The notes under the pieces are model-generated. The model did not search any database. It was given only the letters and a program-made list of their open reading frames with translations, and had not been told where the DNA came from. Positions 5,273 to 47,932 of a stretch of DNA of 64,000 nt are shown piece after piece. Each line of letters opens with the position of its first letter. Position 1 is the stretch's first letter. The DNA comes from Thermoproteota archaeon (GTDB taxonomy: Archaea; Korarchaeota; Korarchaeia; Korarchaeales; JAOZGB01), in contig JAVCBU010000003.1 in the NCBI GenBank assembly GCA_037917685.1, positions 96,001-160,000 of the forward strand, given 5' to 3'. The translations under genes and the position numbers were made by a program.

Positions 5273-7432
5273 TTGAGCGACGGCTTATATCTTGGTAAGT
5301 ATCTTGATTCTAACGGAAACATAAAGGGAAAGTTTCAGATTGGCCTGGAGGATTTGATGACACACGCATTCATACTCGGGATGACAGGTTCCGGGAAAAC
5401 TGTTCTAGGCAAATGCATAGTTGAAGAGGCAGCTCTGAATGGGGTGCCATCGATAGTAATCGACATTAAGGGTGATCTGACATCGCTAGCCCTCGTCCCG
5501 GAATCCCCGAGATTCGAACATGTTGCTCCAATTATGAAGTACTTCGGCCTTGAACCCAAGGATTTCACCCGAAATGCTGAGCTTTACGATCTTAAACCTG
5601 AAAATTATAGGCGTCTTAGAGAAAATGTCAGGTTTAAGGTGTACACTCCCTTTTCGTCTAATGGAATCCTTCTGTCTTCAACTTCGATCCCGGAGTCTCC
5701 TAAAGATTTTAGAAAGATTTATGATGAAAACCCTGAGTATGCTGTTAACCTTGTAGAAACTGTGGCTTCGAGCGTTCTGGCTAGGATCGGCAGGGCTGGT
5801 AGGAGAGAGTGGAAGTTCCTATCAGAGGTTATAAAGGAGGCCTGGCTGAACGACCTCGATCTTCAAGGAGTTGAAGGCCTAAAACTGCTTATTGGCATGA
5901 TCCTTAACCCACCGTTTGAGAAGATTGGGGCGATGGATCTCGAGAGCTATTACCCCCTGAGGGAAAGGAAAAAACTTGCTATTAAGATCAACGATTTAAT
6001 GGTTGGATCAGAGGCAATAATGCAAGTTGGGGAACCCCTTGACATAGACTCTATGATAGGGTCTGAGGATGGAAAAACCGTTGTTGCAATAATAAACCTC
6101 ACCGAGGCCCCGTCTGATGTAGAAATGATGTTCACTGTTTCTAGAATTGCGTATCAACTGTATAGGTGGATGAGGGAAAAAGGCGGCGGGAAAAGGCCCA
6201 GGCTTATATTCTACGTCGACGAACTAGCAACAGGGGGGAAGGCAGGCCTTCTTCCACCATATCCCCATAATCCACCGTCCAAGCAGATTCTCAGCTTGCT
6301 ACTAAAACAGGGTAGAGCATTTGGCCTCTCCTGCATATACTCAACACAAAACCCGGGAGACGTAGACTACAAGGCACTGTCAAACTGTGGGATCTGGGCC
6401 ATAGGACGGCTCACAACTGATAGAGATAGAAGGAAGGCCCTCGAAGGTGTTTCAATGGTAGTCTCAGGGGAGGAAAAACAGAAACTGTCAGAAATAATAG
6501 CGGGTTTGCAGCCCGGCTGCTTCGCTGTTAAGCTTAGAAGTGGGGAGATAAAGCTGATCAGGGAAAGGTGGCTGTACAGTATACATGTAACAATCCCTCC
6601 CTCCATGCTCTCCTACTTTAAACCTAAATCTAAAAAGAAGATGGACAGGATCATTAAAAGGATAGAAAGAGAGGAGTATGAGATAAAATGGTACAATGCC
6701 AAAGAAGAGATATTTGGAAAACTCCAGTCGGATAGAAGAAGGAAGATAATAGGAATCTTCGGGATAACGGAGGCGCTGTCCAAAATATACGTTTTGAAAG
6801 TGCCTATAGCCATATACAGGATAGTATATTTTGAGAAAGCTCTCGTGGGGATAGTAAGAAAAAGATATAGAATATTTGAAAGGAGACGCTACCTTATGGT
6901 TGACTTACATAACGGCCTTATACTACAGCCTGAACCCGGAATGTTTAGGATAGATGATGTAATCTCTAAACTTTACGGGATTCCAACAAAGTGTCTCAAA
7001 ACACTTAAAGAAATATGCGAATCCGGCCAGGCAAGATATTCAAGCCTAGGAAGAAGGTGTGTCCAGAGGCTTGAGGAGGCGGGGCTTGTTTACAGACATA
7101 AACCTGAGGGATTGAGATACTATATTGTTAAACCAAGAATTACCATAAACATATGGAATGTAGCAATAGAGAAGCCGCCCCTGGTAAGCAGGGTTGAAAG
7201 ATTCGGAGACATAGAATATATGCTTAAGGAACGTTACGACCATGAAAAGGTGAGAAGAATACTCGAGGCAATCCTAGGTGCAAAAGTAGAATATGTTAAA
7301 ACTGTGCATCTGAAAGTGTTTGTTGGGGCATATATTGATGAGAAAGGTTCAACCTCGGTTCTTCCCCTCCACCCATACGAGGGTGGTGAGAAAATCATAT
7401 CCGAGATGTTGTCCAATATCTACATACCTTAA
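5273..7432 (+). CDS. HerA/FtsK-superfamily ATPase (DUF87/DUF853-like) with a long basic C-terminal region including a putative winged helix
   Basis: Walker A GMTGSGKT, Walker B FYVDE, KQGRAFG arginine finger, STQNP sensor. Confidence 0.85.
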   Translation: MSDGLYLGKYLDSNGNIKGKFQIGLEDLMTHAFILGMTGSGKTVLGKCIVEEAALNGVPSIVIDIKGDLTSLALVPESPRFEHVAPIMKYFGLEPKDFTRNAELYDLKPENYRRLRENVRFKVYTPFSSNGILLSSTSIPESPKDFRKIYDENPEYAVNLVETVASSVLARIGRAGRREWKFLSEVIKEAWLNDLDLQGVEGLKLLIGMILNPPFEKIGAMDLESYYPLRERKKLAIKINDLMVGSEAIMQVGEPLDIDSMIGSEDGKTVVAIINLTEAPSDVEMMFTVSRIAYQLYRWMREKGGGKRPRLIFYVDELATGGKAGLLPPYPHNPPSKQILSLLLKQGRAFGLSCIYSTQNPGDVDYKALSNCGIWAIGRLTTDRDRRKALEGVSMVVSGEEKQKLSEIIAGLQPGCFAVKLRSGEIKLIRERWLYSIHVTIPPSMLSYFKPKSKKKMDRIIKRIEREEYEIKWYNAKEEIFGKLQSDRRRKIIGIFGITEALSKIYVLKVPIAIYRIVYFEKALVGIVRKRYRIFERRRYLMVDLHNGLILQPEPGMFRIDDVISKLYGIPTKCLKTLKEICESGQARYSSLGRRCVQRLEEAGLVYRHKPEGLRYYIVKPRITINIWNVAIEKPPLVSRVERFGDIEYMLKERYDHEKVRRILEAILGAKVEYVKTVHLKVFVGAYIDEKGSTSVLPLHPYEGGEKIISEMLSNIYIP

Positions 7433-28181: not shown

Positions 28182-28936
28182 CGACACCCCCGCTTCAGCT
28201 GGGAGATTCTTGCTTCAGGGTATTCATCGGTTGAGTGTTCACTGCCCTTTTAGACTTCCACCCCATTCCATTCCACCTTAGAAGCAAGGGCTGTGCCACC
28301 CGTTATCCCTATCCTCCACGAGGGACTCGGGATTATAATTCTACAACGCTTGGCTATGTCAACACGCCTACTATGTCGCGTGCTCCTATCCTACAGTTAG
28401 GGCAGTAGGATAAGCCTCTATATCTTCTAACGCCCGTTACCCCGCATAGTGGGCATAGCGTTGAAGTCTTGTATTTGTTAACTTCTTCAACCTCTATTCC
28501 ACACTCCTCAACCTTATCTTTGAACCTCTGGACATTGTAGCTGAAGCTCCAAAAATTGTGTATCATCGAATTGGATTTCCTACCCTTATGTTGTTTTCTC
28601 TGATGCCTTTGAGCCTTTTTAAACATCTTTGAAACACATAGCTTGTATCGTCTTCAACTACCTGTCTTATCATGCGTTCACTGCATGCCTGAACCTTCCC
28701 CCTAATCCTGCATAGCCTTCTAGGCCTTCTTGATGGTTTAGCATTGTTTGTTCTTGCCAGTCTGCCCTTTAGCAATCTTCTTCGTCTAATACCATCAATT
28801 GGATAGAGTCGCCCTTCCAGAGTAGGCTTGGCTGTTCTAGTCCCTCAAACCATATTGTTGCAAGGTCGTCGCACCTGAGTCGATGTGGAGGGCTTGTCGC
28901 CTCCACGCTTGGGAGTCCCTCGACTTTAACCGTCAT
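28182..28936 (-). mobile_element. tnpB: Degenerate IS200/IS605-family tnpB relic including its right end
   Basis: Frameshifted fragments: RuvC-I-like HIDSG, HNFWSF..GIEVEEV..TSTLCPLCG..CPNC..RDIVG, PLLLRWNG tail; terminal hairpin GAATCTCCCAGCTGAAGCGGGGGTGTC. Confidence 0.85.
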
Positions 28937-29014: not shown

Positions 29015-29815
29015 GTGGAGTCCTCTCTTTACGTTGTTGGGCAAGCGTTAAAATTTGATCTTAATAAAGTAAGCAAGCTTAGAACTGAAGTTAGAATCGC
29101 GGTGGAGGAAGCATTCTCTCTATATGTCAATGGGGAACTCTACACAAGAGTGATGCTTACACCTTCCTTCCTTGAAGAGTGGGCTGTCGGCTTTCTCTAC
29201 TATAAGGGTATGGTAGAATCCAAGAAAGATATAGAGAGGATTATTGTTCATGGGAGTAATGTAGCTGTTTCAATCAAGTCTCCAGGGAATACTCAGATGA
29301 GGCTTAGAGGCTATATGCCTGTCCCTTCTAATTACGTGTCCTTAGCGAACGTTGACGGTGAAAGGATGGCCCTAATAAAGAAAGCATCTGTGGAAATAAG
29401 TTCAAACAAAATTTCGATACCTGGGAGTCTTGTAAGGGATATTTCCAGATCGTTGAACGGTCTATCGGAGATTTTCAGGGTGACAGGTGGAACCCACTCG
29501 GCAGCGCTGTTTGACATTAGAGGGAAGTGTTTAACTCACATTGAAGACGTTGGAAGGCACAATGCGGTGGACAAGGTTATAGGAAGCTGCATACTGCATG
29601 ATATCCAGATGAAGGACAAGATTTTAGCAGTCAGCGGCCGGCTTTCAGAAGAAGTCGTCTTCAAATGTGTAAGAGCATACATCCCAATACTCATATCACT
29701 TTCAGCCCCTCTAAGCCGGGGGGTCAGGCTGGCGAGAGCAGCAGGTATTACCCTTATAGGCTTTGCAAGGGGGTCAAAGTTCAATGTCTACACCTACCCG
29801 AATAGAATCACATAA
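29015..29815 (+). CDS. fdhD: Formate dehydrogenase accessory sulfurtransferase FdhD
   Basis: TGGTHSAA, EDVGRHNAVDKVIG, SGRLS.E and TLIGFAR motifs. Confidence 0.9.
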   Translation: MESSLYVVGQALKFDLNKVSKLRTEVRIAVEEAFSLYVNGELYTRVMLTPSFLEEWAVGFLYYKGMVESKKDIERIIVHGSNVAVSIKSPGNTQMRLRGYMPVPSNYVSLANVDGERMALIKKASVEISSNKISIPGSLVRDISRSLNGLSEIFRVTGGTHSAALFDIRGKCLTHIEDVGRHNAVDKVIGSCILHDIQMKDKILAVSGRLSEEVVFKCVRAYIPILISLSAPLSRGVRLARAAGITLIGFARGSKFNVYTYPNRIT

Positions 29816-29869
29816 CTAATGAGTAGTCCTATAAATAGAGGATAATAAGACTTTATTAGAGGGAACGTT

Positions 29870-30199
29870 TTGCTGGTGAACCTGATTAGATTTCCTGAAG
29901 CTGGAATAGAAGATCTTCACGAGCCAGTAGACGGTCTACTCGCTTCATATAGCGAAATAATGCTTAAGTCTAGACCTGTTAGGCGGCTTTTTGAGAGAAA
30001 ACTCAAGCATAACATATTATCAACACTGAAAAGCATGGGATACCATGTGAAAGAATTTATGATAGGAGGAGGTAGAGTATTTATCCAACTAAAGGAACTG
30101 CAACCCTGTGCGAATTATGTAGTGTCATTAAATACAAATACTTCTCTAAAAAATCTAACAGTAAACAGGAAAGAAAGAATAACTTCAATTTATGTATAA
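29870..30199 (+). pseudogene. thiI: ThiI (tRNA sulfurtransferase) N-terminal fragment
   Basis: YSEIMLKSRPVRRLFERKLKHNI..GGRVFI matches the ThiI N-terminus, then degenerates; no PP-loop domain. Confidence 0.7.
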
Positions 30200-30205
30200 A
30201 AACTG

Positions 30206-31465
30206 GTGATCAAAAGTTATAGGGGGTTTATTATGGCGGCAAAAATTTCCAGAGTAAAAGCGCTTCTGGAAGCTCACGGAGAGCCTGAGAGAGAAGTTTA
30301 CTATGACATCGAAAACTCTCCGATCGTCCCAAGAGAGGTTGTAGAGGCGATGCTTCCATACTTTAATTTAAAGGGTTATGGTCACCCTTCAATCACCCAT
30401 AAACCGGGGTGGCAGGCGGCGGAAATAGTGGAATCTACAAGGGAAATAGTAGCAGAAACAATAAATACAAGGCCGGAGAACATAACATTCACACCTTCCG
30501 GAACCGTTGCCAACAATCTAGCATTGGTAGGGGCTTGCCTCCAGAAAGGCAAGGGGAAAATCGTAATCTCAGCAGTTGAACATGAAAGCGTGATCTTCCC
30601 CACTATAAGGACCCTGGGAAGGATGGGTTACCGTGTTGTCCAAGCACCGGTAGATGGAGAAGGATTTGTTGATCCAGAGATAATAGCCTCGATGGTTGAT
30701 AAGTCCACAGTATTGGTTAGCGTTCAACTCGTAAATCACGAGATAGGTACAATACAAAGAGTGCGAGAAATAGTTGAACATGTTAAAGACATAAATAAAG
30801 AAACCCTTGTACACACAGACGCAGCAGATGGTTGGGGGTGGATGCCTATAGATGTTGGAAAGCTAAAAGTCGACTTGTTAACACTTAGCGGGAGGAAGAT
30901 TCAAGCACCTAAAGGCGTGGGGATTCTCTGGGTGAAAGATGGAGTTAGACTTCGAAGAATAGTGGAAGGGCCGCTAAGCACCCAAAACTATTGGCCAGGA
31001 GTCGAAAACACGCCAGCGATCGCCGGATTGAAAAAGGCCGTTGAACTCGCATTCAGTAACATGGAAGAGAACGCTAAGAAAGTAGCAGGGCTAAGAGATA
31101 GGCTTATGAAAGGTGTATTAAGTAACGTGGATGATGTGATTCTCAACGGGCCGGAAAGCAGTTTAAGAAGCCCTGACAATCTGAACCTAAGCTTTCTACA
31201 TATAGAGGGGGAAGCACTGACGATCGAGTTAAGCTTAAAAGGCATCTACGTGTCCAGCGGTTCCGCGTGTACTACCAGAGTTCTTGAGCCGAGCCATGTA
31301 ATGCTAGCGATAGGGAGAAAATACGAGGAGGCCCACGGAAGCATCCTTTTCAAGCTTACAAGGTGCCATACCATAGAAGACGTAAACTATACTATTGAAA
31401 ATATTCCATTAGCTGTTGAAAGGCTAAGAAAGATGAGTGCCACTAAAGGTGAGATAGTTGAGTAG
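30206..31465 (+). CDS. iscS: IscS/NifS-like class I cysteine desulfurase with divergent active-site residues (start probably 30233)
   Basis: EHESV, HTDA, SGRK (PLP Lys), SSGSAC and PSHVM motifs. Confidence 0.85.
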   Translation: MIKSYRGFIMAAKISRVKALLEAHGEPEREVYYDIENSPIVPREVVEAMLPYFNLKGYGHPSITHKPGWQAAEIVESTREIVAETINTRPENITFTPSGTVANNLALVGACLQKGKGKIVISAVEHESVIFPTIRTLGRMGYRVVQAPVDGEGFVDPEIIASMVDKSTVLVSVQLVNHEIGTIQRVREIVEHVKDINKETLVHTDAADGWGWMPIDVGKLKVDLLTLSGRKIQAPKGVGILWVKDGVRLRRIVEGPLSTQNYWPGVENTPAIAGLKKAVELAFSNMEENAKKVAGLRDRLMKGVLSNVDDVILNGPESSLRSPDNLNLSFLHIEGEALTIELSLKGIYVSSGSACTTRVLEPSHVMLAIGRKYEEAHGSILFKLTRCHTIEDVNYTIENIPLAVERLRKMSATKGEIVE

Positions 31466-31994
31466 GATTCCCCTTATTTATACTCCTAAAGTTCTAGAGT
31501 TATTTAAAAACCCGAAAAACCTCGGGAAAATGAGCGATGCCTCAGTTGTCGCTCAGGCGGGAAGTCCAGCGTGCGGAGATGTAATAAACATTTACCTCAA
31601 AGTTACAGTTAGAAACGGGGAAGACTACATCGACAAAGCAAGCTTTGAAAGCTACGGGTGCGCTGCTAACATCGCTGCAGCAAGCATCGTCACAGAGCTC
31701 GTTAAGGGATTATCGTTGAAAGAAGCATGGACGAAAATAAGCTGGAAGCAAGTGTCAGACGAGTTAGGCGGGCTGCCTCCTGTCAAAAGACACTGTAGCA
31801 TCTTAGCGGTTGGAGCACTAAAACGAGCCATCAGAAAATATTATACTAAGATAAAAGGCCAAAGACCTGAATGGCTTCCCTTAGATCTCACCCCGGATGA
31901 GAAACAAGCATTAGAGGCGGAAGAGATGATAGACAGGCTGTATAGGAGGTTTAGAAATGAGGGTGAAAAAGATAGATCTAACAGTACAGCCTGA
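31458..31994 (+). CDS. iscU: IscU/NifU-N Fe-S scaffold with a C-terminal extension
   Basis: FKNPKN.G, SPACGD, GCAANIA and LPPVKRHCS motifs. Confidence 0.92.
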   Translation: MSRIPLIYTPKVLELFKNPKNLGKMSDASVVAQAGSPACGDVINIYLKVTVRNGEDYIDKASFESYGCAANIAAASIVTELVKGLSLKEAWTKISWKQVSDELGGLPPVKRHCSILAVGALKRAIRKYYTKIKGQRPEWLPLDLTPDEKQALEAEEMIDRLYRRFRNEGEKDRSNSTA

Positions 31995-32187
31995 GGGTTG
32001 TGTGAATCCACCGATTGTAAGGCTTACACGGGCTATTAAAGAGCTTAAACTGGGAGAAGAGATAGAGGTAATATATAGAGAGGACATGATACCGCTGAAA
32101 ACGCTACAGCTCTTGTCAAAAAAGTATAACCTTGTCCTAGCCCAGGTTTCAGCTAATAAGTGTGTTATGAAAAGGGAGGGTACATGA
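31957..32187 (+). CDS. TusA/SirA-like sulfur-carrier protein, copy 1
   Basis: 76 aa, IDL..EGCVNPP..AIKELK.GEEIEVI; TusA-like topology. Confidence 0.7.
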   Translation: MRVKKIDLTVQPEGCVNPPIVRLTRAIKELKLGEEIEVIYREDMIPLKTLQLLSKKYNLVLAQVSANKCVMKREGT

Positions 32188-32756
32188 TAGATGTAGAGGC
32201 TATCCGGAAGGACTTTCCAATACTTGAGAGGATAATAAACGGCCAGAAAATAGTGTATTTCGATAATGCCGCTTCCTCGCAGAAGCCGGTTCAAGTAGTG
32301 GAGAGAATGAAAGACTTCTACTATAACACATATGCAAACGTGCATCGCGGCGTTCACACGCTCAGCCAGGAAGCATCCGAACAATACGAGGAGGCACACG
32401 CAGTTGTAGCATCCCTCATAGGCTCCGGGAAAGATGAAATAGTATTCACAATGGGCCAACAGACTCAATAAACCTGCTCGCCCGTAGACTTCATAGCATT
32501 CAGCGGCCACAAAATGCTAGGCCCGACAGGGATAGGTGTACTCTACGGTAAGAAAGACCTTCTTGAAGAGCTAACGCCATACCGGTATGGCGGCGGAATG
32601 ATGAGCAGGGTAACACTCTCAGAAGTCGAGTTTCAAGATGTCCCATGGAGACTTAAAGCGGGAACACCTAACATAGTTCAGGCTGTAGGCCTAGCAGAAG
32701 CGGTAAAATACCTCAAAAGGGTGGGAATGGAGAATATAGAGAGCCATGTAGCTTAG
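32184..32756 (+). pseudogene. sufS: SufS pseudogene (frameshift, internal deletion of about 340 bp, truncated before the catalytic Cys)
   Basis: Matches the intact copy at 38991 up to EIVFTMG, jumps to DFIAFSGHKM, stops after ENIESH. Confidence 0.9.
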
Positions 32757-32835: not shown

Positions 32836-33075
32836 TTGGATATATCTTTTACGATGATGGTTAAAGTTCTCACCAAAGGGATAATTGTAATTCCAAAGAA
32901 GGTTAGGGAAAAGATTGGGATTTCCGAGGGGAGCTTACTATCGCTAAAGGTTGAGGATGGAAGTATAATTCTAACTCCAGCTGAAAGAAATATAACGGAG
33001 ATCAACCTTCCGTATGACACTGTTGACAAGATTATATCCTCTCTTAGAAGGGAGGAGTTGAAGCTTGAAGGCTAA
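32836..33075 (+). CDS. AbrB/MazE-type antitoxin (VapB)
   Basis: KGIIVIPKKVREKIGI.EG..L motif; overlaps the PIN gene. Confidence 0.85.
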   Translation: MDISFTMMVKVLTKGIIVIPKKVREKIGISEGSLLSLKVEDGSIILTPAERNITEINLPYDTVDKIISSLRREELKLEG

Positions 33076-33574
33076 AACCTTAGGATACACCTTAGATTCT
33101 GGTGTTTTAATAGAATATGTAACCCCAGAGTCGCCCAATTATACCTTAGCTAGAAACCTGCTTTTAATGAGCCTGCTTGGTAGGGTAAAGCTGTACGTTC
33201 AGATAATAAGCCTCACAGAGGTATACTACGTTTCCCTAAGGCTCTATAAGACAATGGGACTTAAGCAGCCCGGGGAAAAAGCTAGAGCCCTCTTCAACTT
33301 CTACATAAACCACCCTGGGATAAATATCGTGGTTCCAGATAGTAAAATAGCCTTAGAGGCAGGAGTGATCAAAGAAAATTATAAGATAAGCCTAGCGGAT
33401 TCATACGTTCTAGCTACAGCGAAAAATAAAGCATCGATACCTCTATTTAGAAAAGTGGAGGAAGAATTCAAAGAAATATATGGGGAGCTTAAAAAAGCGT
33501 TCAGACTTACAACACTGCAGGAAATAAAAACACAACTAGAAGATTCTCTTACCACTGAGGACGAGAATAGTTAG
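33065..33574 (+). CDS. vapC: PIN-domain toxin (VapC)
   Basis: LDSGVLI, LTEVYY and ISLADS..LATA motifs. Confidence 0.85.
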   Translation: MKAKTLGYTLDSGVLIEYVTPESPNYTLARNLLLMSLLGRVKLYVQIISLTEVYYVSLRLYKTMGLKQPGEKARALFNFYINHPGINIVVPDSKIALEAGVIKENYKISLADSYVLATAKNKASIPLFRKVEEEFKEIYGELKKAFRLTTLQEIKTQLEDSLTTEDENS

Positions 33575-33643
33575 TTTAAGAATTTCGCTTGCAACTCTAC
33601 CCTGAATGTTTGATTTATTAATTCTCAAGGGGTATATCTACCT

Positions 33644-33703
33644 AGGCCGGTGATGAGATCTCTTGCCTGAAACAGATGAAGTCTGAACCGCAAGCTGAGG
33701 CCT
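33644..33703 (+). ncRNA. Box C/D sRNA (paralog A)
   Basis: AGGCC stem, GTGATGA, guide GATCTCTTGC, CTGA, C' AGATGA, guide AGTCTGAACCGCAAG, CTGA, GGCCT. Confidence 0.8.
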
Positions 33704-38489: not shown

Positions 38490-38801
38490 TGTGTCGTTAC
38501 CGAACTCGTTAAGGGATTAACATTAAAGGAAGCATGGACCAAGATAAGCTGGAAGCAAGTGTCAGACGAGCTAGGTGGACTTCCGCCTGTCAAAAGACAC
38601 TGTAGCGTGTTGGCCGTAGGCGCACTAAAGCGTGCCATCAGAAAGTATTATACTGAAATAAAAGGCTATAAACCCGAATGGCTTCCTTCAGATCTTACCC
38701 CAGACGAGAAACAGGCTCTAGAAGCGAAGGAGATGATAGACAGGTTGTATAGGAGGTTTAGGAATGGGAGCGAAAAAGATAGACTTGACAATACAGCCTG
38801 A
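38490..38801 (+). pseudogene. iscU: 5'-truncated iscU copy
   Basis: VTELVKGL..WTKISWKQVSDELGGLPPVKRHCS is near-identical to the C-terminal half of 31458..31994; the first two Cys motifs are missing. Confidence 0.9.
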
Positions 38802-38994
38802 GGGATGCGTAAATCCGCCAATTGTAAGGCTTACACGAGCTATTAAAGAGCTTAAACAGGGCGAAGAGATAGAAGTAATATACAAAGAAGACCTGATACC
38901 GCTAAAAACCCTTCAGCTCCTATCAAGAAAGTACAAGCTAATCCTAACCCAGATTTCACCTAATACATGTATTCTGAAGAGGGGGGATTCATGA
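38764..38994 (+). CDS. TusA/SirA-like sulfur-carrier protein, copy 2
   Basis: Paralog of 31957..32187 (58/76 identical by my count); EGCVNPP conserved. Confidence 0.7.
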   Translation: MGAKKIDLTIQPEGCVNPPIVRLTRAIKELKQGEEIEVIYKEDLIPLKTLQLLSRKYKLILTQISPNTCILKRGDS

Positions 38995-40214
38995 TAGACG
39001 TAGAAGCCGTTAGGAAAGACTTTCCAATACTTGAAAGAGAGATAAACGGTCAGAAAATAGTCTATTTCGATAATGCCGCATCCTCTCAGAAGCCGGTTCA
39101 AGTAGTGGAAAAGATGAGAGACTTCTACTATAACACGTACGCAAATGTGCATCGAGGTGTACATACACTCAGCCAGGAAGCATCCGAACAGTACGAAGAA
39201 GCCCACGCAATCATAGCATCACTTATAGGCGCCCGGAAGGATGAGATAGTCTTCACAATGGGGACAACAGACTCTTTAAATATGCTTGCCTACGGCCTTG
39301 AATCCACGTTGGCAGGAGGGGACGAGATAGTAACTACTGTTATGGAGCATCATAGTAACTATCTCCCATGGAAGTTTCTTGCAGAGCGGAAAAAGGCGAA
39401 ACTCAAGATTATAGATGTAGATGATGAGGGCAGACTAAACTATGCCCAGCTAGAAAACCTAATCTCGCCAAGGACGAAAATTGTTGCCGTATGTCATATG
39501 TCAAATGTAACTGGCTTCATTACTGATGTAGGAAAAATTGCTAGGATAGCCCATGAGACTGAAGCTTACGTCGTCGTTGACGGGGCACAGTCTGTTCCCC
39601 ATCTGCCTGTGAATGTTAAAGAGCTTGATATAGACTTCATGGCCTTCAGCGGCCACAAAATGCTGGGGCCTACGGGAATAGGCGTACTCTATGGAAAGAA
39701 AGATCTCCTCGAAGAACTAACTCCATACCGGTACGGTGGTGGAATGATAAGTAGGGTAACACTTTCAGAAGTCGAATTTCAAGATGTCCCATGGAGGCTT
39801 GAGGCTGGAACACCAAACATAGTTCAAGCAGTAGGCCTGGCGGAGGCGGTGAAATACCTCAAGAAGGTGGGAATGGAGAACATAGAGAGCCATGAGAAAC
39901 AGCTGGTTAAAAAGACCCTAACCCTAATTCAGGAGGAGCTTAAAGACAAGATAAAAATAGTTGGGCCTCAAAACCAGCTGGAACGTGGGGGCCTCGTGGC
40001 ATTTACAGTCAAAGGACTAGATCACCATACTGTAGCATCCCTACTAGACGCCTACGGTGTAATGGTTAGGAGCGGTAAACACTGCGCACATCCCCTTCAT
40101 GAAAGGCTGGGCCTAGAAGGAACCGTAAGGGCATCCTTCTACCTATATAACACGGAGCATGAAGTTGAAAGATTTATACAAGCATTAGCCGAAATAGTTG
40201 GTACAGTAGATTAG
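38991..40214 (+). CDS. sufS: SufS/CsdA class II cysteine desulfurase
   Basis: YFDNAASSQKP, EHHSN, DGAQ, SGHKM, EAGTP, RSGKHCA and VRASFYLYN motifs. Confidence 0.95.
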   Translation: MIDVEAVRKDFPILEREINGQKIVYFDNAASSQKPVQVVEKMRDFYYNTYANVHRGVHTLSQEASEQYEEAHAIIASLIGARKDEIVFTMGTTDSLNMLAYGLESTLAGGDEIVTTVMEHHSNYLPWKFLAERKKAKLKIIDVDDEGRLNYAQLENLISPRTKIVAVCHMSNVTGFITDVGKIARIAHETEAYVVVDGAQSVPHLPVNVKELDIDFMAFSGHKMLGPTGIGVLYGKKDLLEELTPYRYGGGMISRVTLSEVEFQDVPWRLEAGTPNIVQAVGLAEAVKYLKKVGMENIESHEKQLVKKTLTLIQEELKDKIKIVGPQNQLERGGLVAFTVKGLDHHTVASLLDAYGVMVRSGKHCAHPLHERLGLEGTVRASFYLYNTEHEVERFIQALAEIVGTVD

Positions 40215-40278
40215 ACCAACTCGCATGTTTTAAGCCCTACGATTAGTTTAATAACTCGTAAATCCATATAACCTACTG

Positions 40279-40337
40279 GGCCTGTGATGATATCTAGCAT
40301 CTGACACCGATGAAGTCTGAACCGCAAGCTGAGGCCT
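40279..40337 (+). ncRNA. Box C/D sRNA (paralog B)
   Basis: GGCC stem, GTGATGA, guide TATCTAGCAT, CTGA, C' CGATGA, guide AGTCTGAACCGCAAG identical to paralog A, CTGA, GGCC. Confidence 0.8.
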
Positions 40338-41754: not shown

Positions 41755-42957
41755 CTATTTTTGTCCGAGGGATTCTTTCAGCTGCTGGGTTAGTAGTGGT
41801 ACTATCTGGAAAAGGTCTCCTACTATACCGAAGTCTGCAACGTCGAATATTGGTGCTTCAGGGTCTTTATTTATGGCTATGATTGTTTCGGATGTTTGCA
41901 TGCCTACGAGGTGCTGTATTGCTCCTGATATCCCTACTGCTATGTAAAGCTTTGGTGCTACAGTTTTCCCTGTCTGGCCTACCTGCTGGTGGTGTGGAAG
42001 CCATCCAAGATCCACTATCGCCCTTGAACCTCCGACAGCGGCGTGTAGGACGTCTGCGAGTTCTCTTATGATGCTTAGGTTCTCCTTGGATCCTATCCCC
42101 CTCCCTGCTGAGACTATTATGTCAGCCTCCTCTATGTTGGCTGCTGACTCTTGCACCTCTCTGACCACCTCTACTATTCTCGTTCTTATACTGTCGGGGG
42201 CTAGCTTAACTGGGTGGTCTATTATCTCGGCGGTTCGGCCGGGCTCTGGCATGGGCATCTTCATTACTCTTGGCCTTACAGTGGCCATCTGAGGCCTTGT
42301 CCGTGGGCAGAGTATCGTTGCCATGACATTCCCGCCGAAAGCCGGCCTGATCTGGACTAGCTGTCCCGCCTCGTTTACGTCTAGGCCTGTGCAGTCGGCT
42401 GTAAGCCCTGTTTTAAGCCTTGCCGCAACTCTTGGGGCTAGATCCCTACCGTTCATTGTTGCACCCAGCAACACTATTGAGGGTTTATAGTTGGATATCA
42501 TGTCGTAGAGTACCGCTGCATACCCATCTGTAGTGTACTTTTCGAGAAGTTTGTGGTCTGCTACTAAAATCTTGTCTGCACCGTACTCTGCAAGCGTGTC
42601 AGCAAGGTCTCTAACCTTGTACCCTAATAGTACGGCGTAAAGCTCCTCCCCTAGCTTTTCTGCAAGCCTCCTGCCGGCACCTAGCAGCTCGAGTGTAACA
42701 TTCCTTATTTTCCCATCCATTTGTTCAGCTACAACCCAAACCCCTTTATACTGTGATAGGTCAACTGGTCTGAGCTCACCACGGCTTATGCTGATAGCTC
42801 CGACCGGGCAGGCCTTGACGCATGACCCGCAGAGAGTGCATTCGGGGCCTATATTGGCCTTCCCGTCTACAATGCTTACGGCGCCGAACGGGCATACTCT
42901 AACGCACAATCCGCATCCGGTACACTTCTCAGCGTCAACGCTGATTAGGCTGCTCAT
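41755..42957 (-). CDS. etfA: Electron transfer flavoprotein alpha subunit with an N-terminal 2x[4Fe-4S] ferredoxin
   Basis: Two CxxCxxCxxxCP motifs; GLTADC, RPAFGG, QVGQTG and GISGAIQH. Confidence 0.95.
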   Translation of the reverse strand: MSSLISVDAEKCTGCGLCVRVCPFGAVSIVDGKANIGPECTLCGSCVKACPVGAISISRGELRPVDLSQYKGVWVVAEQMDGKIRNVTLELLGAGRRLAEKLGEELYAVLLGYKVRDLADTLAEYGADKILVADHKLLEKYTTDGYAAVLYDMISNYKPSIVLLGATMNGRDLAPRVAARLKTGLTADCTGLDVNEAGQLVQIRPAFGGNVMATILCPRTRPQMATVRPRVMKMPMPEPGRTAEIIDHPVKLAPDSIRTRIVEVVREVQESAANIEEADIIVSAGRGIGSKENLSIIRELADVLHAAVGGSRAIVDLGWLPHHQQVGQTGKTVAPKLYIAVGISGAIQHLVGMQTSETIIAINKDPEAPIFDVADFGIVGDLFQIVPLLTQQLKESLGQK

Positions 42958-43751
42958 CCAACCACCCCCTTGCTCAGTATGAACTCAGCGAGTTTCCTGG
43001 CTACCGTCTCGGGGTCTTCATCCTTAATGATTATCCCCTGCCTCTTCTTCTCAGGTGTGAAAACGTCTATCACCCAGGTGGGGGATCCTCGGAGGCCATA
43101 GGATTCCTCACTTCCTCCGACGTCCTTGAAGGTTACAAGCTTTATTTCCTTCTTCCTTGCAGCCATTATACCCATTAGTGATGGTATCCTCGGTTCGTTT
43201 AGCCCTTTGATCGCTGTTATCAGGACTGGGAGTTCCGCCTCTACGACCTCGTAGCCGGTATCTGTCTCCCTATGAACCACTATTCTCCTTTCTTTAGGGT
43301 AGACCATGACTTTCTTTGCATAGGTTATCTGGGGTATTCCCAGGTGCTCTGCAAGCTCAGGGCCAACCTGGGCTGTGTCACCGTCAGTTGCCTGCTTCCC
43401 ACATATAATTAGGTCATAGTCGAGCTTGGATATAACCTTGGCGAGGGTATAAGAGGTGACATAGGTGTCTGCCCCCGCGAAAACTCTATCTGAAATGTGT
43501 ATTGCACGGTCTGCCCCCATTGCAAGGCACTTTAGAAGGGCTTCCCTAGCCTGTGGCGGCCCCATTGTTACAACGATCACCTCCCCGCCGTGTTTCTCCT
43601 TTATTCTTATAGCCTCCTCAACAGCTATTTCATCGAATGGGTTTACAATGTTCGGTATCCCCTCTCTTATAAGCGTGTGAGTTTCAGGGTCTATCTTAAC
43701 CTCTGTGGTCTCCGGTACCTGTTTAATGCATACAACAATCTTTAGGCTCAA
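42954..43751 (-). CDS. etfB: Electron transfer flavoprotein beta subunit
   Basis: VCIKQVP, NPFD, FAGADT, GKQATDGDTAQVG and GSPT motifs. Confidence 0.95.
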   Translation of the reverse strand: MSLKIVVCIKQVPETTEVKIDPETHTLIREGIPNIVNPFDEIAVEEAIRIKEKHGGEVIVVTMGPPQAREALLKCLAMGADRAIHISDRVFAGADTYVTSYTLAKVISKLDYDLIICGKQATDGDTAQVGPELAEHLGIPQITYAKKVMVYPKERRIVVHRETDTGYEVVEAELPVLITAIKGLNEPRIPSLMGIMAARKKEIKLVTFKDVGGSEESYGLRGSPTWVIDVFTPEKKRQGIIIKDEDPETVARKLAEFILSKGVVG

Positions 43752-43792: not shown

Positions 43793-44833
43793 GTGGAAAA
43801 TTACAAATATTTAACTTTTCATTTCCGGAATAGACTGATGCAGGAATGGTACTACTTGCCAGAGGATAAGCTTCCCGTCTTGTTTGATGTGCTTAGGGGA
43901 AAATATACTGTGGTTGCACCGATTAAAAATGGTGATAAGTATCTTTATTCGGTTGTCGACGACTTTCATAGTGTTTCGATGGACTATGTGAGGACTGTGT
44001 CGCCTCTTAAGAAATTTCTATTTCCCGACGGGGAGATACTTTACAGCTACAGGATTAGAGAGGAAAAGGTAGAGCTGAAGTATTCCCCTCCGTCAGAGAA
44101 ATACTGTTTCTTCGGGGTTCACCCATGCGACTCCAATGGTTTAGTAGTGCTTGACACCATATTGTCCTCCGTCCATCCAGATTTTCACTATACAAAGAGG
44201 AGGAAGAACTCTTTCCTCGTTGTGTTAGACTGTAGAACGTCAGACGAATACTGCTTCTGCGAAACGGTAGACTCTAGGTTTCCATGGCCGGAAAGCTATG
44301 ATATTCGCCTACACCCGGTCGAGGGTGGCTTTAAACTTCAACCTTACGGGGAGGAAGCCGCTAGACTTACACGTATGCTAGGGCTTGAGAAAACAGCGCC
44401 TCCCTCGGCTGCTGTGAAGATAAATAAGGTTAAGGCTGATCTTCCAACGCCTGAAAAAATTCTTGGAGCATACGAGAGCGATATCTGGAATGAATGGGCT
44501 AAAAAATGCCTCTTCTGCGGGTCCTGTATAGCCGTCTGCCCGACTTGCGCGTGCTTTGACATTAAGGACAAGACAGATGGTAGATTAACCTTTGGCTGTA
44601 GGGTTAGGGTCTACGACGGCTGTGTCTTTAAGGGTTTCACGAAGGTTGCGGGAGGCCGTGTGGATAGGGAATCTGAGGACGAACGGTTTAAGAACAGGTT
44701 TTACCACAAGTTCGTTGAGATTCCTTCTCTTAAAGGGAGGATGGGATGTACTGGATGCGGTAGATGTGCAGCTTTCTGCCCTAGGGGCATAAATCCGGTA
44801 GAAGTCTTAACATCCTTAAAAGGTGAACTGTAA
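43793..44833 (+). CDS. hydB: Group 3b hydrogenase/sulfhydrogenase beta subunit (start probably 43837)
   Basis: GVHPCD, CFC, CLFCGSC..CPTC.CF, RFYHKF and CTGCGRC..CP motifs. Confidence 0.9.
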   Translation: MENYKYLTFHFRNRLMQEWYYLPEDKLPVLFDVLRGKYTVVAPIKNGDKYLYSVVDDFHSVSMDYVRTVSPLKKFLFPDGEILYSYRIREEKVELKYSPPSEKYCFFGVHPCDSNGLVVLDTILSSVHPDFHYTKRRKNSFLVVLDCRTSDEYCFCETVDSRFPWPESYDIRLHPVEGGFKLQPYGEEAARLTRMLGLEKTAPPSAAVKINKVKADLPTPEKILGAYESDIWNEWAKKCLFCGSCIAVCPTCACFDIKDKTDGRLTFGCRVRVYDGCVFKGFTKVAGGRVDRESEDERFKNRFYHKFVEIPSLKGRMGCTGCGRCAAFCPRGINPVEVLTSLKGEL

Positions 44834-45645
44834 TGCTGGAAGCCCCCCTGCTAGTCCCGAGACTTGGTGAGATTACTAAAATAGTGGAAGAGTCGTACGA
44901 TACTAAAACCTTCAGGATTAAGCCTGCAGACTGGGAAGTAGAGTTTAATCCTGGGCAGTTTGCGGAAATAACAGTTTTCGGAGTTGGAGAAGCACCATTT
45001 GCGCTATCCTCAGATCCCGATGTCAAAGAATACTTTGAGGTCTCGGTGAGAGCCGTGGGAAGCGTGACCAACATGCTCCACAAGCTCAAGACAGGAAGCC
45101 TAGTTGGATTTAGAGCCCCGCTAGGTGTTGGCTGGCCGCTGGAGGAACTTGAAGGGCAAAGCATAACGATGGTCGTTGGTGGCACAGGCATATTCGCGGT
45201 TTCCAGTCTGATATGGCACATATACCATCAAAGGGGTAGATTTGGCGATGTAAAAATACTCTACGGCGCTAGAAGCCCGGATCTGCTCTTAAAGAAGAAA
45301 GAATTTGAATTCTGGTTGCAGAAAATTGAGGTTCACCTTACAGTTGACAAACCCTCTGAGGGGTGGACTGGAAACGTTGGTGTAGTAACAAATCTAATCG
45401 ATAAAATTAAACCGAACCCTGAAAGTTACTTCCTGGTTGTTGGGCCACCAATAATGATGAAATTCACACTCCTAAAACTCGACGAGATAGGAGCTAAACC
45501 CGACAGAGTCTACGTCTCACTTGAACGGAACATGAAGTGCGGGCTAGGCCTATGCGGGAGGTGTAGACTCTCAAATGGGCTCTACGTATGTAAAGACGGC
45601 CCAATCTTCAGATCAGATAAGATATGGAGGTGCGATCTAGAATGA
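44833..45645 (+). CDS. hydG: Group 3b hydrogenase gamma subunit (FAD/NAD(P), [2Fe-2S])
   Basis: PGQF, GEAP, GGTG, GPPIMM and SLERNMKCGLGLCGRC..VCKDGP motifs. Confidence 0.92.
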   Translation: MLEAPLLVPRLGEITKIVEESYDTKTFRIKPADWEVEFNPGQFAEITVFGVGEAPFALSSDPDVKEYFEVSVRAVGSVTNMLHKLKTGSLVGFRAPLGVGWPLEELEGQSITMVVGGTGIFAVSSLIWHIYHQRGRFGDVKILYGARSPDLLLKKKEFEFWLQKIEVHLTVDKPSEGWTGNVGVVTNLIDKIKPNPESYFLVVGPPIMMKFTLLKLDEIGAKPDRVYVSLERNMKCGLGLCGRCRLSNGLYVCKDGPIFRSDKIWRCDLE

Positions 45646-46403
45646 TAGATGAACATCCTCACCTGGTTCCAAAGAAGGTTAAGATTGCACTCTACACCCT
45701 AACATGTTGTGAGGGATGCGCGCTAAACACCGCAATAGCGCTGGCATGCCTATCATCACCCTATATTAAAGTAGAGACATTTAGACTGGTAGATGGGGGC
45801 GAACCAGCAGAGGCAGATATTGCACTTGTTGAAGGCGCTGTCGTAACACTGATGGATAAAGAACTACTGAGGCAAGCTGAGAGTATGAGTAAGGTGATGG
45901 TAGCTCTAGGGTCATGTAGTCATAATGCTGGTCTTCTAGCCTTAAAGAACATGTTTGACCATGAAAAAGCCTTCGAGACAGTTTACGGAGAAACAAGGCC
46001 AGCTATCCCCCACCTTTCAAAGGCGTCCTCTATAACAAGCATGGCAAGGGTTGACTACACTATTCCAGGATGTCCGCCCTCCACCGAGGAAATCGTGAAC
46101 TATTTAACCGCAGTAATAGTTGGAAAGAGGCTAGAAGAGTACGAAAAACCGGTGTGCTGGGAGTGCAGGCTTAAAGACTCCGATTGCCTGTTGAAAAACG
46201 GTATACTATGCCTCGGCCCCATAGTTAAGGGTGGGTGTAATGCAAGGTGCCCAGAATACGGGAAGCCCTGCCTTGGATGTCGGGGCCTAGTAAAAGATGC
46301 AAAGATGGAGGAATTCATAGAATCCCTTAGAGAAAACAACATCCCCCTGGAGAAGCTCAAAGAAGCTACTAAGCTATACCTGAGTGCGGAGGTGAGCTTG
46401 TAA
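45624..46403 (+). CDS. hydD: Group 3b hydrogenase small (delta) subunit
   Basis: CCEGC, VEGAV, GSC, PGCPP and C..C..C..CLGP..GC.ARCP..C.GCRG motifs. Confidence 0.92.
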   Translation: MEVRSRMIDEHPHLVPKKVKIALYTLTCCEGCALNTAIALACLSSPYIKVETFRLVDGGEPAEADIALVEGAVVTLMDKELLRQAESMSKVMVALGSCSHNAGLLALKNMFDHEKAFETVYGETRPAIPHLSKASSITSMARVDYTIPGCPPSTEEIVNYLTAVIVGKRLEEYEKPVCWECRLKDSDCLLKNGILCLGPIVKGGCNARCPEYGKPCLGCRGLVKDAKMEEFIESLRENNIPLEKLKEATKLYLSAEVSL

Positions 46404-47641
46404 TGATCCCAGTTGAAGGCCTTGACAGGATTGAAGGCCACGCTCACATCAAGATTTTAGAAAACCCCGAAACCGGGGTGGAAGAGTGCAGAATAATAGT
46501 AGACGAGGGGATAAGATTTTTCGAAGCGTTTCTAACCGAAGTACCGTTGAAAGAGGCTCCAGCAATAGCTTCAAGGATATGTGGGCTGTGCAGTGCATCA
46601 TACTCTATCTGCCTATCCAAGGCAATAGAGAATGCCCTGGGCTACAATGTAGACTATGAAACCGAAAGCTACAGAGAAGCTGTACAGGTGATAAGCACGG
46701 CTAGAAGTCACATAGCCCACGTCTTCCTATTATGGCTTCCCGACATCCTCGGGGTGAAAGGCGCATTCGACATAGCTGAAATATCTCCTGAGGCCTTCAA
46801 GGCTGCGGCCAATCTCATAGTAGAGATGACCAAGGCACATGAGCGCCTTACCGGCGGAGAAATACACCCTGTCAACATGACGTTAGGTGGGTTCACAAAG
46901 CTTCCAAGAGAAAACGTTGACAAAGCAGCAAAAAACCTGGAGAACAGCGTTAAACAAGCAGAAATCCTGTTTGAAAAACTTCTAAACCTTGTAGACAAGA
47001 TCCCCAACCTTGAAGTTCAACTCCCATATGTATCCATAGGGAACGAGGAAAACTACTCCCTAATAAATGGCCCCATAAAAATAGACGGTGTAAAAGCAGG
47101 AAAACCACCCAGAGAACTAATAGTAGAACATGCAGTATCATACTCGACAGCCAAAAGATGCACCATCAACGGCAAAGCCTACATGGTTGGGGCACTCTCA
47201 AGGCTAAACAATAATCCAAACTCCATCTCGCCAGAGGCAAAGAGCCATGCGGAAAAGCTAGGCATAAAAGATGGGGATAGAAACCCATTTAAAATACCTC
47301 TAGCCCAAACCGTAGAAACAGTATATATTCTGCAACATGCCATGACAATAATAGAGAAGGTGAAACCGCCAAAGCAGCTTGTAGAACCAGAGCCGAAGGC
47401 TGGAGAGGGAGATGCAACCATAGAGGCGCCTAGGGGAATCCTACACATAAACCTCTCAATTGCTGAGAATGGAAGGATAAAAGAGATAAACATAATACCC
47501 CCTACAACCCAAAACCTTCTACACATGGAATATTCAGCTACAAAATTCCTGGCAGAACATCCCGACATGCCTCAGAGGAGGAAAATGGTTGAAGTACTCG
47601 TGAGAAGTTACGACCCTTGCATCTCATGCTCTGTACAGTAA
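46403..47641 (+). CDS. hydA: Group 3b [NiFe]-hydrogenase large (alpha) subunit
   Basis: RIEGH, RICGLC, EAPRG, PTTQN and DPCISC motifs; ends SVQ-stop. Confidence 0.92.
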   Translation: MIPVEGLDRIEGHAHIKILENPETGVEECRIIVDEGIRFFEAFLTEVPLKEAPAIASRICGLCSASYSICLSKAIENALGYNVDYETESYREAVQVISTARSHIAHVFLLWLPDILGVKGAFDIAEISPEAFKAAANLIVEMTKAHERLTGGEIHPVNMTLGGFTKLPRENVDKAAKNLENSVKQAEILFEKLLNLVDKIPNLEVQLPYVSIGNEENYSLINGPIKIDGVKAGKPPRELIVEHAVSYSTAKRCTINGKAYMVGALSRLNNNPNSISPEAKSHAEKLGIKDGDRNPFKIPLAQTVETVYILQHAMTIIEKVKPPKQLVEPEPKAGEGDATIEAPRGILHINLSIAENGRIKEINIIPPTTQNLLHMEYSATKFLAEHPDMPQRRKMVEVLVRSYDPCISCSVQ

Positions 47642-47802: not shown

Positions 47803-47932
47803 GGAGGCTAGGCGGCCATAGCAGCCGGGGATACGCCCGTACCCATTCCGAACACGGAAGCTAAGCCCGGCTGCGTTCCACGGAGTACTGCGGTCCGCAA
47901 GGACGCGGGAAACGTGGAAGCCGCTAACCTCC
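47803..47932 (+). rRNA. rrf: 5S rRNA (stand-alone; exact ends approximate)
   Basis: GCGGCCATAGC..CCCGTACCCATTCCGAACACGGAAGCTAAGCC..AGTACTG..GGGAAAC..GCCGC with a pairing terminal stem; TTTAAA box upstream and T-tract downstream. Confidence 0.95.

Follow-up and report, generated by a model that had tools for sequence, protein, structure and literature searches.

The gene cluster at positions 29015–32756 of a korarchaeal contig belongs to a conserved archaeal cluster for sulfur trafficking and iron-sulfur (Fe-S) assembly. Its core is a pair of the minimal iron-sulfur system (MIS) type, namely an IscS-like (MisS-type) class-V pyridoxal 5'-phosphate (PLP) protein, here given the working name IscSx, and an IscU scaffold; a TusA-type carrier is added to this pair, as is, in about 40% of the genomes, the cysteine desulfurase SufS. 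The DNA in question, hereafter the window, is a stretch of 64,000 nucleotides (nt) from a Thermoproteota archaeon of the lineage Korarchaeia (GenBank assembly GCA_037917685.1, contig JAVCBU010000003.1, positions 96,001 to 160,000 of the forward strand); coordinates are counted from its first letter, and features lie on the plus strand unless a minus sign is given. Species-representative genomes were scanned with two clade-specific peptides, which gave 380 confirmed matches, and the best 80 were fetched. All neighborhood counts refer to these best 80 of 380 matching genomes, with 8 kb on each side of the IscSx gene. The residue counts for IscSx refer to 81 sequences (80 genome loci and the window) in the numbering of Escherichia coli IscS, and the conservation of IscU and of the TusA-like protein was scored over 44 sequences each. 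The clade, large at 380 matches, combines an Arg-less "desulfurase" with a conserved alternative pocket, a scaffold with a conserved acidic C-terminal helix, a TusA-like protein coupled translationally to that scaffold, and a canonical SufS that was recruited repeatedly. It bears on how the minimal Fe-S systems of archaea obtain their sulfur.

The IscS-like protein, its scaffold and its carrier

The IscSx gene lies at 30206–31465, with a likely ATG start at 30233 (410 amino acids, aa), and residues 31–393 of its product match PF00266 (E = 1.3e-55). The protein has the class-V aminotransferase fold of a type I cysteine desulfurase, and its best match in the PDB is IscS2 of Archaeoglobus fulgidus (4r5f/4eb5, E about 1e-83 to 2e-83). 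It scores far below every NCBIfam equivalog cut-off for desulfurases (NifS, 360 against 530.75; IscS, 294.3 against 643.2). According to a review (PMC8918507), the strictly conserved residues of cysteine desulfurases are Lys, Arg, His and Cys, of which the Arg binds the carboxylate of cysteine in both enzyme types. IscSx keeps three of these four residues, and it is the carboxylate Arg that is missing.

The pattern of conservation is uniform across the clade. The PLP Schiff-base Lys206, the mobile-loop Cys328 (in the motif S-S-G-S-A-C), Asp180 and Ser203 are present in all 81 sequences, Thr76 in 80, His104 in 77 and His205 in 76. Arg354, the carboxylate binder, occurs in none of them, being replaced by Leu (79 sequences) or Met (2), and position 356, a Ser in E. 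coli, is basic in 81/81 (Lys in 75, Arg in 6). Gln183 is replaced by Asp, Arg240 by Trp and Thr243 by Val without exception, Asn155 by His in 77 sequences, and Ser10, Ala11 and Thr12 by Glu, Asn and Ser in 79, 80 and 79 sequences, respectively. The reference protein, taken from strain MG1655, is itself canonical in the alignment, with Arg354, Gln183 and Asn155 in place. All the substitutions listed in the initial annotation hold in alignments with the E. coli and A. fulgidus proteins, and their conservation is clade-wide save for "SGRK" (His205 to Arg), which is found in 1/81, recurs in one relative of 80% identity and is lineage-specific. Decay peculiar to this genome was considered as their origin and is ruled out by the clade-wide invariance of the replacement residues (n = 81). 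Since the replacement residues are themselves invariant, the pocket is a conserved alternative active site, and IscSx a divergent subfamily rather than a decayed enzyme. The label "catalytically dead" is premature, because the PLP Lys, the Asp and the His are kept and a basic residue stands at position 356.

The scaffold gene iscU (31458–31994; 178 aa; PF01592, E = 1.1e-36) encodes a NifU_N scaffold of the MisU type in which the ligand set Cys39, Asp41, Cys68, His112 and Cys113 is invariant. In the PDB it matches A. fulgidus IscU best (4eb5_C, E = 8.6e-30). Like IscSx, it falls under the NCBIfam equivalog cut-offs (129.4 against 187.9); the SufU model TIGR01994 gives 58.1 against a cut-off of 92.5, the NifU/IscU models score higher, the His-Cys pair is kept and the SufU insertion is not evident. 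The C-terminal helical extension that had been noticed in the sequence is borne out: the protein is longer than its E. coli counterpart (178 aa as opposed to 128), the 73 full proteins among the related loci all measure 160–203 aa, and in the model the extension starts as a linker and continues as a long helix, residues 146–175 (AlphaFold2, overall predicted local distance difference test score (pLDDT) 90.9). Two residues of its P-x-W-L-P motif, P137 and W139, are invariant; conservation is 90% or more at the other motif positions and in the acidic stretch.

The next gene (31957–32187) encodes a protein of 76 aa with Cys15 in the motif G-C-x-x-x-P (C-x3-P), which takes the place of the CPxP of TusA; Cys15, Pro19 and Pro46 are invariant. 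With hhalign, the profile of its 44 sequences aligns to one built from 20 canonical TusA proteins of the related loci (probability 96.5%, E = 8.3e-10, 79 columns), and Cys falls on Cys with a one-residue gap. In the Pfam TusA family, 18 of 19 members of the TusA-like family match PF01206 at E of 1 or less (best 9.1e-8), and the two window copies score 15–16.8 bits, under the gathering score of 28.6. No NCBIfam model matched. An exhaustive search found 17 representative homologs at E of 0.001 or less, and a word-based search found 3 proteins. The model of the protein has the two-layer beta-alpha-beta-alpha-beta-beta arrangement of TusA (AlphaFold2, pLDDT 85.4). A Foldseek search of the PDB with this model gave no matches at E of 0.001 or less, and its weak matches were mixed (SepF-like proteins, methyltransferases, and the TusA-family structures 8j4c, 1pav and 1dcj); against PDB sequences the profile found only 3hz7 (UPF0033, E = 0.015) and 1je3 (E = 1.1). 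Because the fold alone does not decide, homology to TusA is based on the hhalign alignment and the Pfam matches of the family members. By these sequence comparisons the initial reading as TusA-like holds, and the protein is a distant TusA paralog, representing a new TusA-like family with a conserved reactive-site Cys. A complex prediction for IscU and the TusA-like protein (score 0.01, mark 0.32), made without control runs, does not bear on whether the two proteins bind each other.

The only intact type II cysteine desulfurase gene of the window's two loci is the sufS at 38967–40214 (likely ATG start at 38991), in a second, partial copy of the cluster. The early description of this SufS as canonical is confirmed: it passes the curated cut-off of TIGR01979 (541.3 bits against 475.1; PF00266, E = 2.7e-146), and its Lys, His-His, catalytic Cys and Arg motifs align over the full length with 8d8s and Bacillus subtilis SufS (5xt5). 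These two SufU-dependent SufS enzymes are also its best PDB matches.

Gene neighborhoods and a proposed route of sulfur

The distribution of the cluster was investigated in the fetched loci, whose records come from classes of Thermoproteota, from Njordarchaeota and from Thermoplasmatota. IscU is adjacent to IscSx in 73/80 loci (74 if one cut by a contig end is included). The TusA-like gene directly follows iscU in 52/80, or in 51 of the 70 loci with room to show it, and a TusA-type gene of any kind is present in 60/80, or in 34 of the 38 loci with long flanks (5 kb or more on each side). In 31/80 loci (17/38 with long flanks) a full SufS is encoded no farther than 8 kb away, and 24 loci combine IscSx, IscU, the TusA-like protein and SufS. 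The genes occur in six orders or more, among them IscSx>IscU>TusA-like>SufS (14 loci), IscU>TusA-like>IscSx (11) and SufS>IscU>TusA-like>IscSx (5); in others sufS is divergent or convergent, and the iscU>tusA-like pair is kept throughout. The TusA-like gene tracks iscU, not sufS. Thus the linkage suspected from a single genome recurs across archaeal phyla with regard to IscSx, IscU, the TusA-like protein and SufS, although 49 of the 80 loci show no SufS in this 8-kb range.

Unbiased clustering of all open reading frames (ORFs) revealed further recurrent neighbors: a P-type ATPase (22/80 loci), canonical TusA (18), a helix-turn-helix regulator (16), a cysteine-synthase-like PALP protein (15), full ThiI with rhodanese (12), an ABC ATPase (12), a ThiF-family E1 protein (11), DsrE (7) and FdhD (2). 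Their orders include IscSx>ThiF>TusA and DsrE>TusA>IscSx>IscU; in six loci without the TusA-like gene, DsrE>TusA stands directly before IscSx>IscU. In some loci the ThiF-family E1 protein, one or two PALP proteins and canonical TusA all adjoin IscSx, upstream in L009, L025 and L053 and downstream in L002 and L008, a set that is reminiscent of thiocarboxylate-dependent sulfur incorporation. The P-type (E1-E2) ATPase, the commonest of the further neighbors (for example L028:4275–6617), is accompanied in a subset of loci by ZIP transporters and a PadR/TRASH regulator, which hints at a link to metal supply.

A division of labor between the two desulfurase-like proteins is plausible, and we favor it tentatively. 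IscSx and IscU would act like the complex of A. fulgidus, whose IscS is described in passages of PMC8918507 and PMC7585200 as lacking the Lys, being inactive and providing a Cys as ligand for the IscU-bound cluster. Because the Arg that anchors free L-cysteine is lost, IscSx would not be the main cysteine desulfurase; it would bind IscU as A. fulgidus IscS does and would relay sulfur, or ligate the cluster, through its loop Cys. Where SufS is present, it would be the enzyme that mobilizes sulfur, since only SufS has a canonical cysteine site. The persulfide may then travel to IscU on the invariant Cys of the TusA-like protein and/or the Cys of IscSx, or directly, and the same relay may supply nearby ThiI, ThiF and canonical TusA as clients. 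A scheme of this kind had been put forward from the sequence at the outset. The lost Arg, the kinship of IscSx and IscU to the A. fulgidus pair, the canonical SufS, the invariant Cys of the TusA homolog and the recurring linkage lend it support, but the association of the TusA-like gene with iscU instead of sufS does not. As to ThiI as a client, its recurrence beside IscSx (12/80) agrees with the proposal, although the copy in the window is a mere remnant.

Several observations weigh against this division of labor. No SufS is found within 8 kb in the majority of loci (49/80; 21/38 with long flanks). The association between the TusA-like gene and SufS is not significant (odds ratio 2.1, p = 0.20, uncorrected for phylogeny), and six loci have SufS beside iscU without a TusA-like gene. 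The TusA, DsrE, ThiF and rhodanese-ThiI genes beside IscSx resemble the client set of the active IscS of E. coli. The replacement residues of the IscSx pocket are invariant, with a basic residue always two positions after the lost Arg, and the PLP Lys is found in every IscSx; the site therefore looks re-tuned rather than dead.

Several of these observations fit a serious rival, possible though somewhat doubtful, in which IscSx would be an active PLP-dependent hub. Its carboxylate anchor would have shifted from Arg354 to Lys/Arg356, and it would load IscU, the TusA-like protein, TusA/DsrE, ThiI and ThiF, with SufS as a co-regulated parallel or back-up enzyme. The retention of the PLP Lys, Asp180, Thr76, His205 and the loop Cys, the invariance of the replacement residues and the basic residue at 356 suit such an enzyme, as do the loci that lack a nearby SufS and the presence among the neighbors of typical IscS acceptors, of which TusA, rhodanese-ThiI, ThiF and DsrE were counted above (acceptors of IscS are listed in a passage of PMC13066941). 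However, the Arg is the strictly conserved carboxylate binder of both desulfurase types in the account of PMC8918507 quoted above; Asn155, Gln183 and Thr243 are changed as well, and the protein stays far under all the desulfurase equivalog cut-offs. Moreover, a canonical SufS in the same operon-like cluster, in 31/80 loci, is hard to explain if IscSx does that job.

We consider it unlikely that SufS passes sulfur directly to the U-type protein in the manner of SufS-SufU. IscSx would then be a structural partner that provides the fourth ligand, and the TusA-like protein would act elsewhere, for example in thiocarboxylate formation, tRNA thiolation or the modulation of IscU. The similarity of the window SufS to SufU-dependent enzymes (8d8s, 5xt5) is consistent with a direct transfer, as are the SufS>IscU and IscU>SufS arrangements without a TusA-like gene in six loci and the view, expressed in a passage of a 2026 review (PMC13066941), that a MisU ancestor probably gave rise to SufU. 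Against it, the scaffold is of the IscU type and not of the SufU type (58 against the TIGR01994 cut-off of 92.5, with His-Cys kept). A role of the TusA-like protein unrelated to IscU is also improbable because its gene is coupled translationally to iscU, in 51 of the 70 evaluable loci.

A further reading is more speculative, and we regard it as improbable. In it IscSx would be no dead desulfurase but a neofunctionalized PLP protein and persulfide relay; with TusA-type carriers (C-x3-P, or TusA plus DsrE), IscU would draw on carrier-bound sulfane sulfur, loaded by SufS from cysteine or else derived from inorganic sulfur. If true, this would represent a third way for sulfur to enter Fe-S assembly, in between the cysteine-dependent ISC/SUF systems and the sulfide-dependent SMS system.

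The locus in the window and its diverged duplicate

The genes at 29015–32756 had been taken for a six-gene operon, fdhD-thiI'-iscS-iscU-tusA-like-sufS. The order stands, but not the intactness, for the last gene is a pseudogene and the second a remnant. The intact first gene, fdhD (29015–29815; 266 aa), encodes a homolog of the FdhD/NarQ family of accessory sulfurtransferases (PF02634, E = 2.6e-65; TIGR00129, 192 bits against a cut-off of 140.9). Of thiI, only the N-terminal ferredoxin-like domain is left (29870–30199; 109 aa; sole match PF22025, ThiI_fer, E = 3e-7), and a tblastn search with the full ThiI of locus L017 found no further ThiI piece in the window. From iscS onward, stop and start codons overlap as first described, by 8 nt for iscS/iscU, by 38 nt for iscU/tusA-like and in an ATGA for tusA-like/sufS.

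The sufS pseudogene (32160–32756) consists of two ORF pieces, 32160–32471 and 32514–32756, which match only positions 1–69 and 202–279 of the Aminotran_5 profile. Compared with the intact copy, it contains a premature in-frame TAA at 32469–32471 and an in-frame deletion of 339 nt (113 codons), where the offset between the copies shifts from 6807 to 7146; homology ends after 32748, the last 320 nt or so being gone. The position of the lost 3' end, between the sufS remnant and a 71-nt element, is occupied by vapB/vapC (32836–33574), which encode a MazE-type antitoxin (PF04014, E = 2.1e-12) and a PIN toxin (PF01850, E = 2.6e-13).

A recurrence of iscU-tusA-sufS at 38.5–40.2 kb had been reported as well. 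Blastn within the window confirms a homologous segment, 31687–32482 matching 38494–39290 at 84% nt identity and 32485–32748 matching 39631–39894 at 86%. A second complete operon is ruled out by the same comparison: the segment is a partial, diverged duplicate that begins inside iscU and holds the iscU tail, a second TusA-like gene and the intact sufS. The iscU' fragment (38496–38801, with blastn homology from 38494) comprises the last 100 codons or so and matches only profile positions 93–122 of PF01592. Its first start codon, GTG at 38559, opens a frame of 80 aa (38559–38801) that lacks the first two cluster Cys; this frame spans the last core helix with the His-Cys pair and the entire C-terminal extension. 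The fragment is identical to copy 1 at 89 of 101 aa (ratio of nonsynonymous to synonymous substitution rates, dN/dS, 0.07). The second TusA-like gene (38764–38994; 76 aa; Pfam TusA, E = 0.0063) shares 58 of 76 aa with the first (dN/dS 0.17).

Over all comparable parts, broken pieces included, dS between the copies is 0.6–1.1 and dN/dS 0.03–0.17. Because dN/dS is so low at this degree of divergence, even in the broken pieces, both copies must have been under purifying selection for long and were broken, in complementary fashion, only recently. The decay of these two old, diverged iscU-tusA-like-sufS segments has thus been reciprocal, with sufS lost from copy 1 and with iscS and the 5' portion of iscU lost from copy 2. 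What remains in the window is one intact IscSx, one IscU, one SufS and two TusA-like genes. Fragmented sufS genes also occur at L017:11140–11756 (three pieces), where they adjoin an intact sufS and an fdhD, and at L071:2930–4036 (four pieces); therefore the duplication and decay of sufS beside this cluster recurs.

Both sufS copies are followed by the 71-nt element, a direct repeat (33633–33703 and 40267–40337) with 80–84% identity between copies, which marks the 3' limit of the duplicated segment. It contains motifs like those of C/D-box small RNAs (sRNAs), GTGATGA ... CTGA ... GATGA ... CTGA, flanked by complementary GGCC ends; the copies agree fully in the second guide-like stretch and differ in the first. 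No Rfam family matched the element at gathering score. Its folding z-scores of -0.14 and 0.30 indicate that it is no more stable than shuffled sequences, and a stability above that of shuffles is not expected of C/D sRNAs. Upstream of fdhD, short ORFs on the minus strand at 28354–28775, with a Cas12f1-like TNB (TnpB C-terminal) domain (PF07282, E = 2.4e-9), are probably what is left of a transposon gene, and their location just before the cluster fits a region prone to rearrangement.

The window IscSx deviates at 6 of the 114 alignment columns that are at least 95% conserved, the clade median being 1. All six positions also deviate in the relative of 80% identity, five of them with the same residue and the sixth with Val here and Ala there, and for this reason the deviations are inherited. 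That the cluster here has lost its function and is a remnant decaying in a region prone to rearrangement is very improbable: the sufS pseudogene, the thiI remnant, the iscU fragment, the TnpB-like fragment (28354–28626), the vapBC insertion and the six deviations would agree with that, but IscSx, IscU and SufS are each kept in exactly one intact copy, dN/dS between the duplicates is low, the deviations are common to the relative, and neither IscSx nor IscU is truncated or lacks any clade-invariant residue, those six apart.

A role for FdhD as a further client of the relay, as was also proposed, is weakly supported and was not borne out by the neighborhoods, where FdhD lies near the cluster in only 2/80 loci. 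The window FdhD also has no Cys where E. coli FdhD has its CGVCG (CXXC) loop in an alignment to 4pde; the need for this loop is disputed, according to a passage of PMC6239281. Neither DsrE nor canonical TusA was found in the region of the window examined, and no SufBCD genes stand beside IscU in the window. The remaining genes of the window are archaeal and anaerobe-like. The nearest DNA ligase (97% identity) bears the name Candidatus Bathyarchaeota archaeon as its source. Among the other genes, four at 43793–47641 encode a 4Fe-4S dicluster protein, an NAD-binding/Fe-S protein, an Oxidored_q6 small subunit and a NiFe hydrogenase large subunit, a set that resembles a sulfhydrogenase-type soluble [NiFe] hydrogenase. 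Adjoining them on the minus strand (41755–43751) are genes for the alpha subunit, with an N-terminal ferredoxin domain, and the beta subunit of an electron transfer flavoprotein. A 5S rRNA gene at 47808–47929 (RF00001, 85.2 bits) is the sole Rfam match at gathering score in the window.

Comparison with known systems

In full-text searches of the literature, no description was found of a cluster of IscS-like, IscU, TusA-like and SufS genes, of an Arg-less, Lys-bearing IscS clade or of a C-x3-P TusA-like family; this coverage leaves out subscription reviews of TusA and the founding MIS paper, reportedly that of Garcia et al. 2022, which may show these neighbors. The closest characterized relative is the (IscS-IscU)2 complex of A. 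fulgidus (PDB 4eb5, 4eb7, 4hvk, 4r5f), the best solved match of both IscSx and IscU. Its IscS likewise has Leu at the substrate Arg, has no Gln after the PLP Asp and keeps the loop Cys, and its IscU also extends past the C-terminus of the E. coli protein. Nevertheless, among the substitutions of IscSx only the change of Arg to Leu and the loss of Gln are shared. A. fulgidus IscS has Asp (Asp199) at the PLP Lys, which IscSx keeps in 81/81; at the sites of W-P-G-V, N-H and E-N-S in IscSx it retains R-S-G-S, N-N and an N-terminal motif close to the canonical one, and at position 356 it has Thr in place of Lys/Arg.

The adjacent IscS-like/IscU-like pair, without chaperones or A-type carriers and in anaerobic archaea, agrees with MIS (MisS plus MisU). 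In passages of PMC13066941 and PMC12192291, MIS is described as a system of two components, an active cysteine desulfurase and a scaffold, with no additional ones. In the clade described here the desulfurase-like protein lacks the Arg, and the pair is not alone, being joined by a TusA-type gene in 60/80 loci and a type II SufS in 31/80. A passage of the 2026 review (PMC13066941) calls MIS the least studied Fe-S system and states that the self-contained function of the IscU-like MIS awaits validation.

Similarity is also seen to the relay of E. coli from IscS to TusA-TusBCD (DsrEFH-like), ThiI and FdhD, in that a type I IscS-family protein stands beside TusA-type, DsrE-type, ThiI and FdhD genes and a Cys-bearing TusA fold is the presumed persulfide acceptor. 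However, TusA of E. coli has CPxP and the family here C-x3-P, and the E. coli genes are scattered and not found with iscU. The DsrE3-TusA carriers of sulfur-metabolizing archaea serve dissimilatory sulfur metabolism. DsrE>TusA pairs directly upstream of IscSx-IscU, in 7/80 loci, recall these carriers, but the pair is linked here to an Fe-S scaffold.

Finally, the SufS-SufU system of the Bacillus type likewise pairs a type II SufS with a U-type protein. The U-type protein of the present clade differs in being IscU-like (His-Cys; 58 against 92.5 for the SufU model), and a type I-like protein is always present with it. The adjacency of SufS and MisU could be a living intermediate on the way toward SufS-SufU, and the cluster may bear on the origin of that pair.

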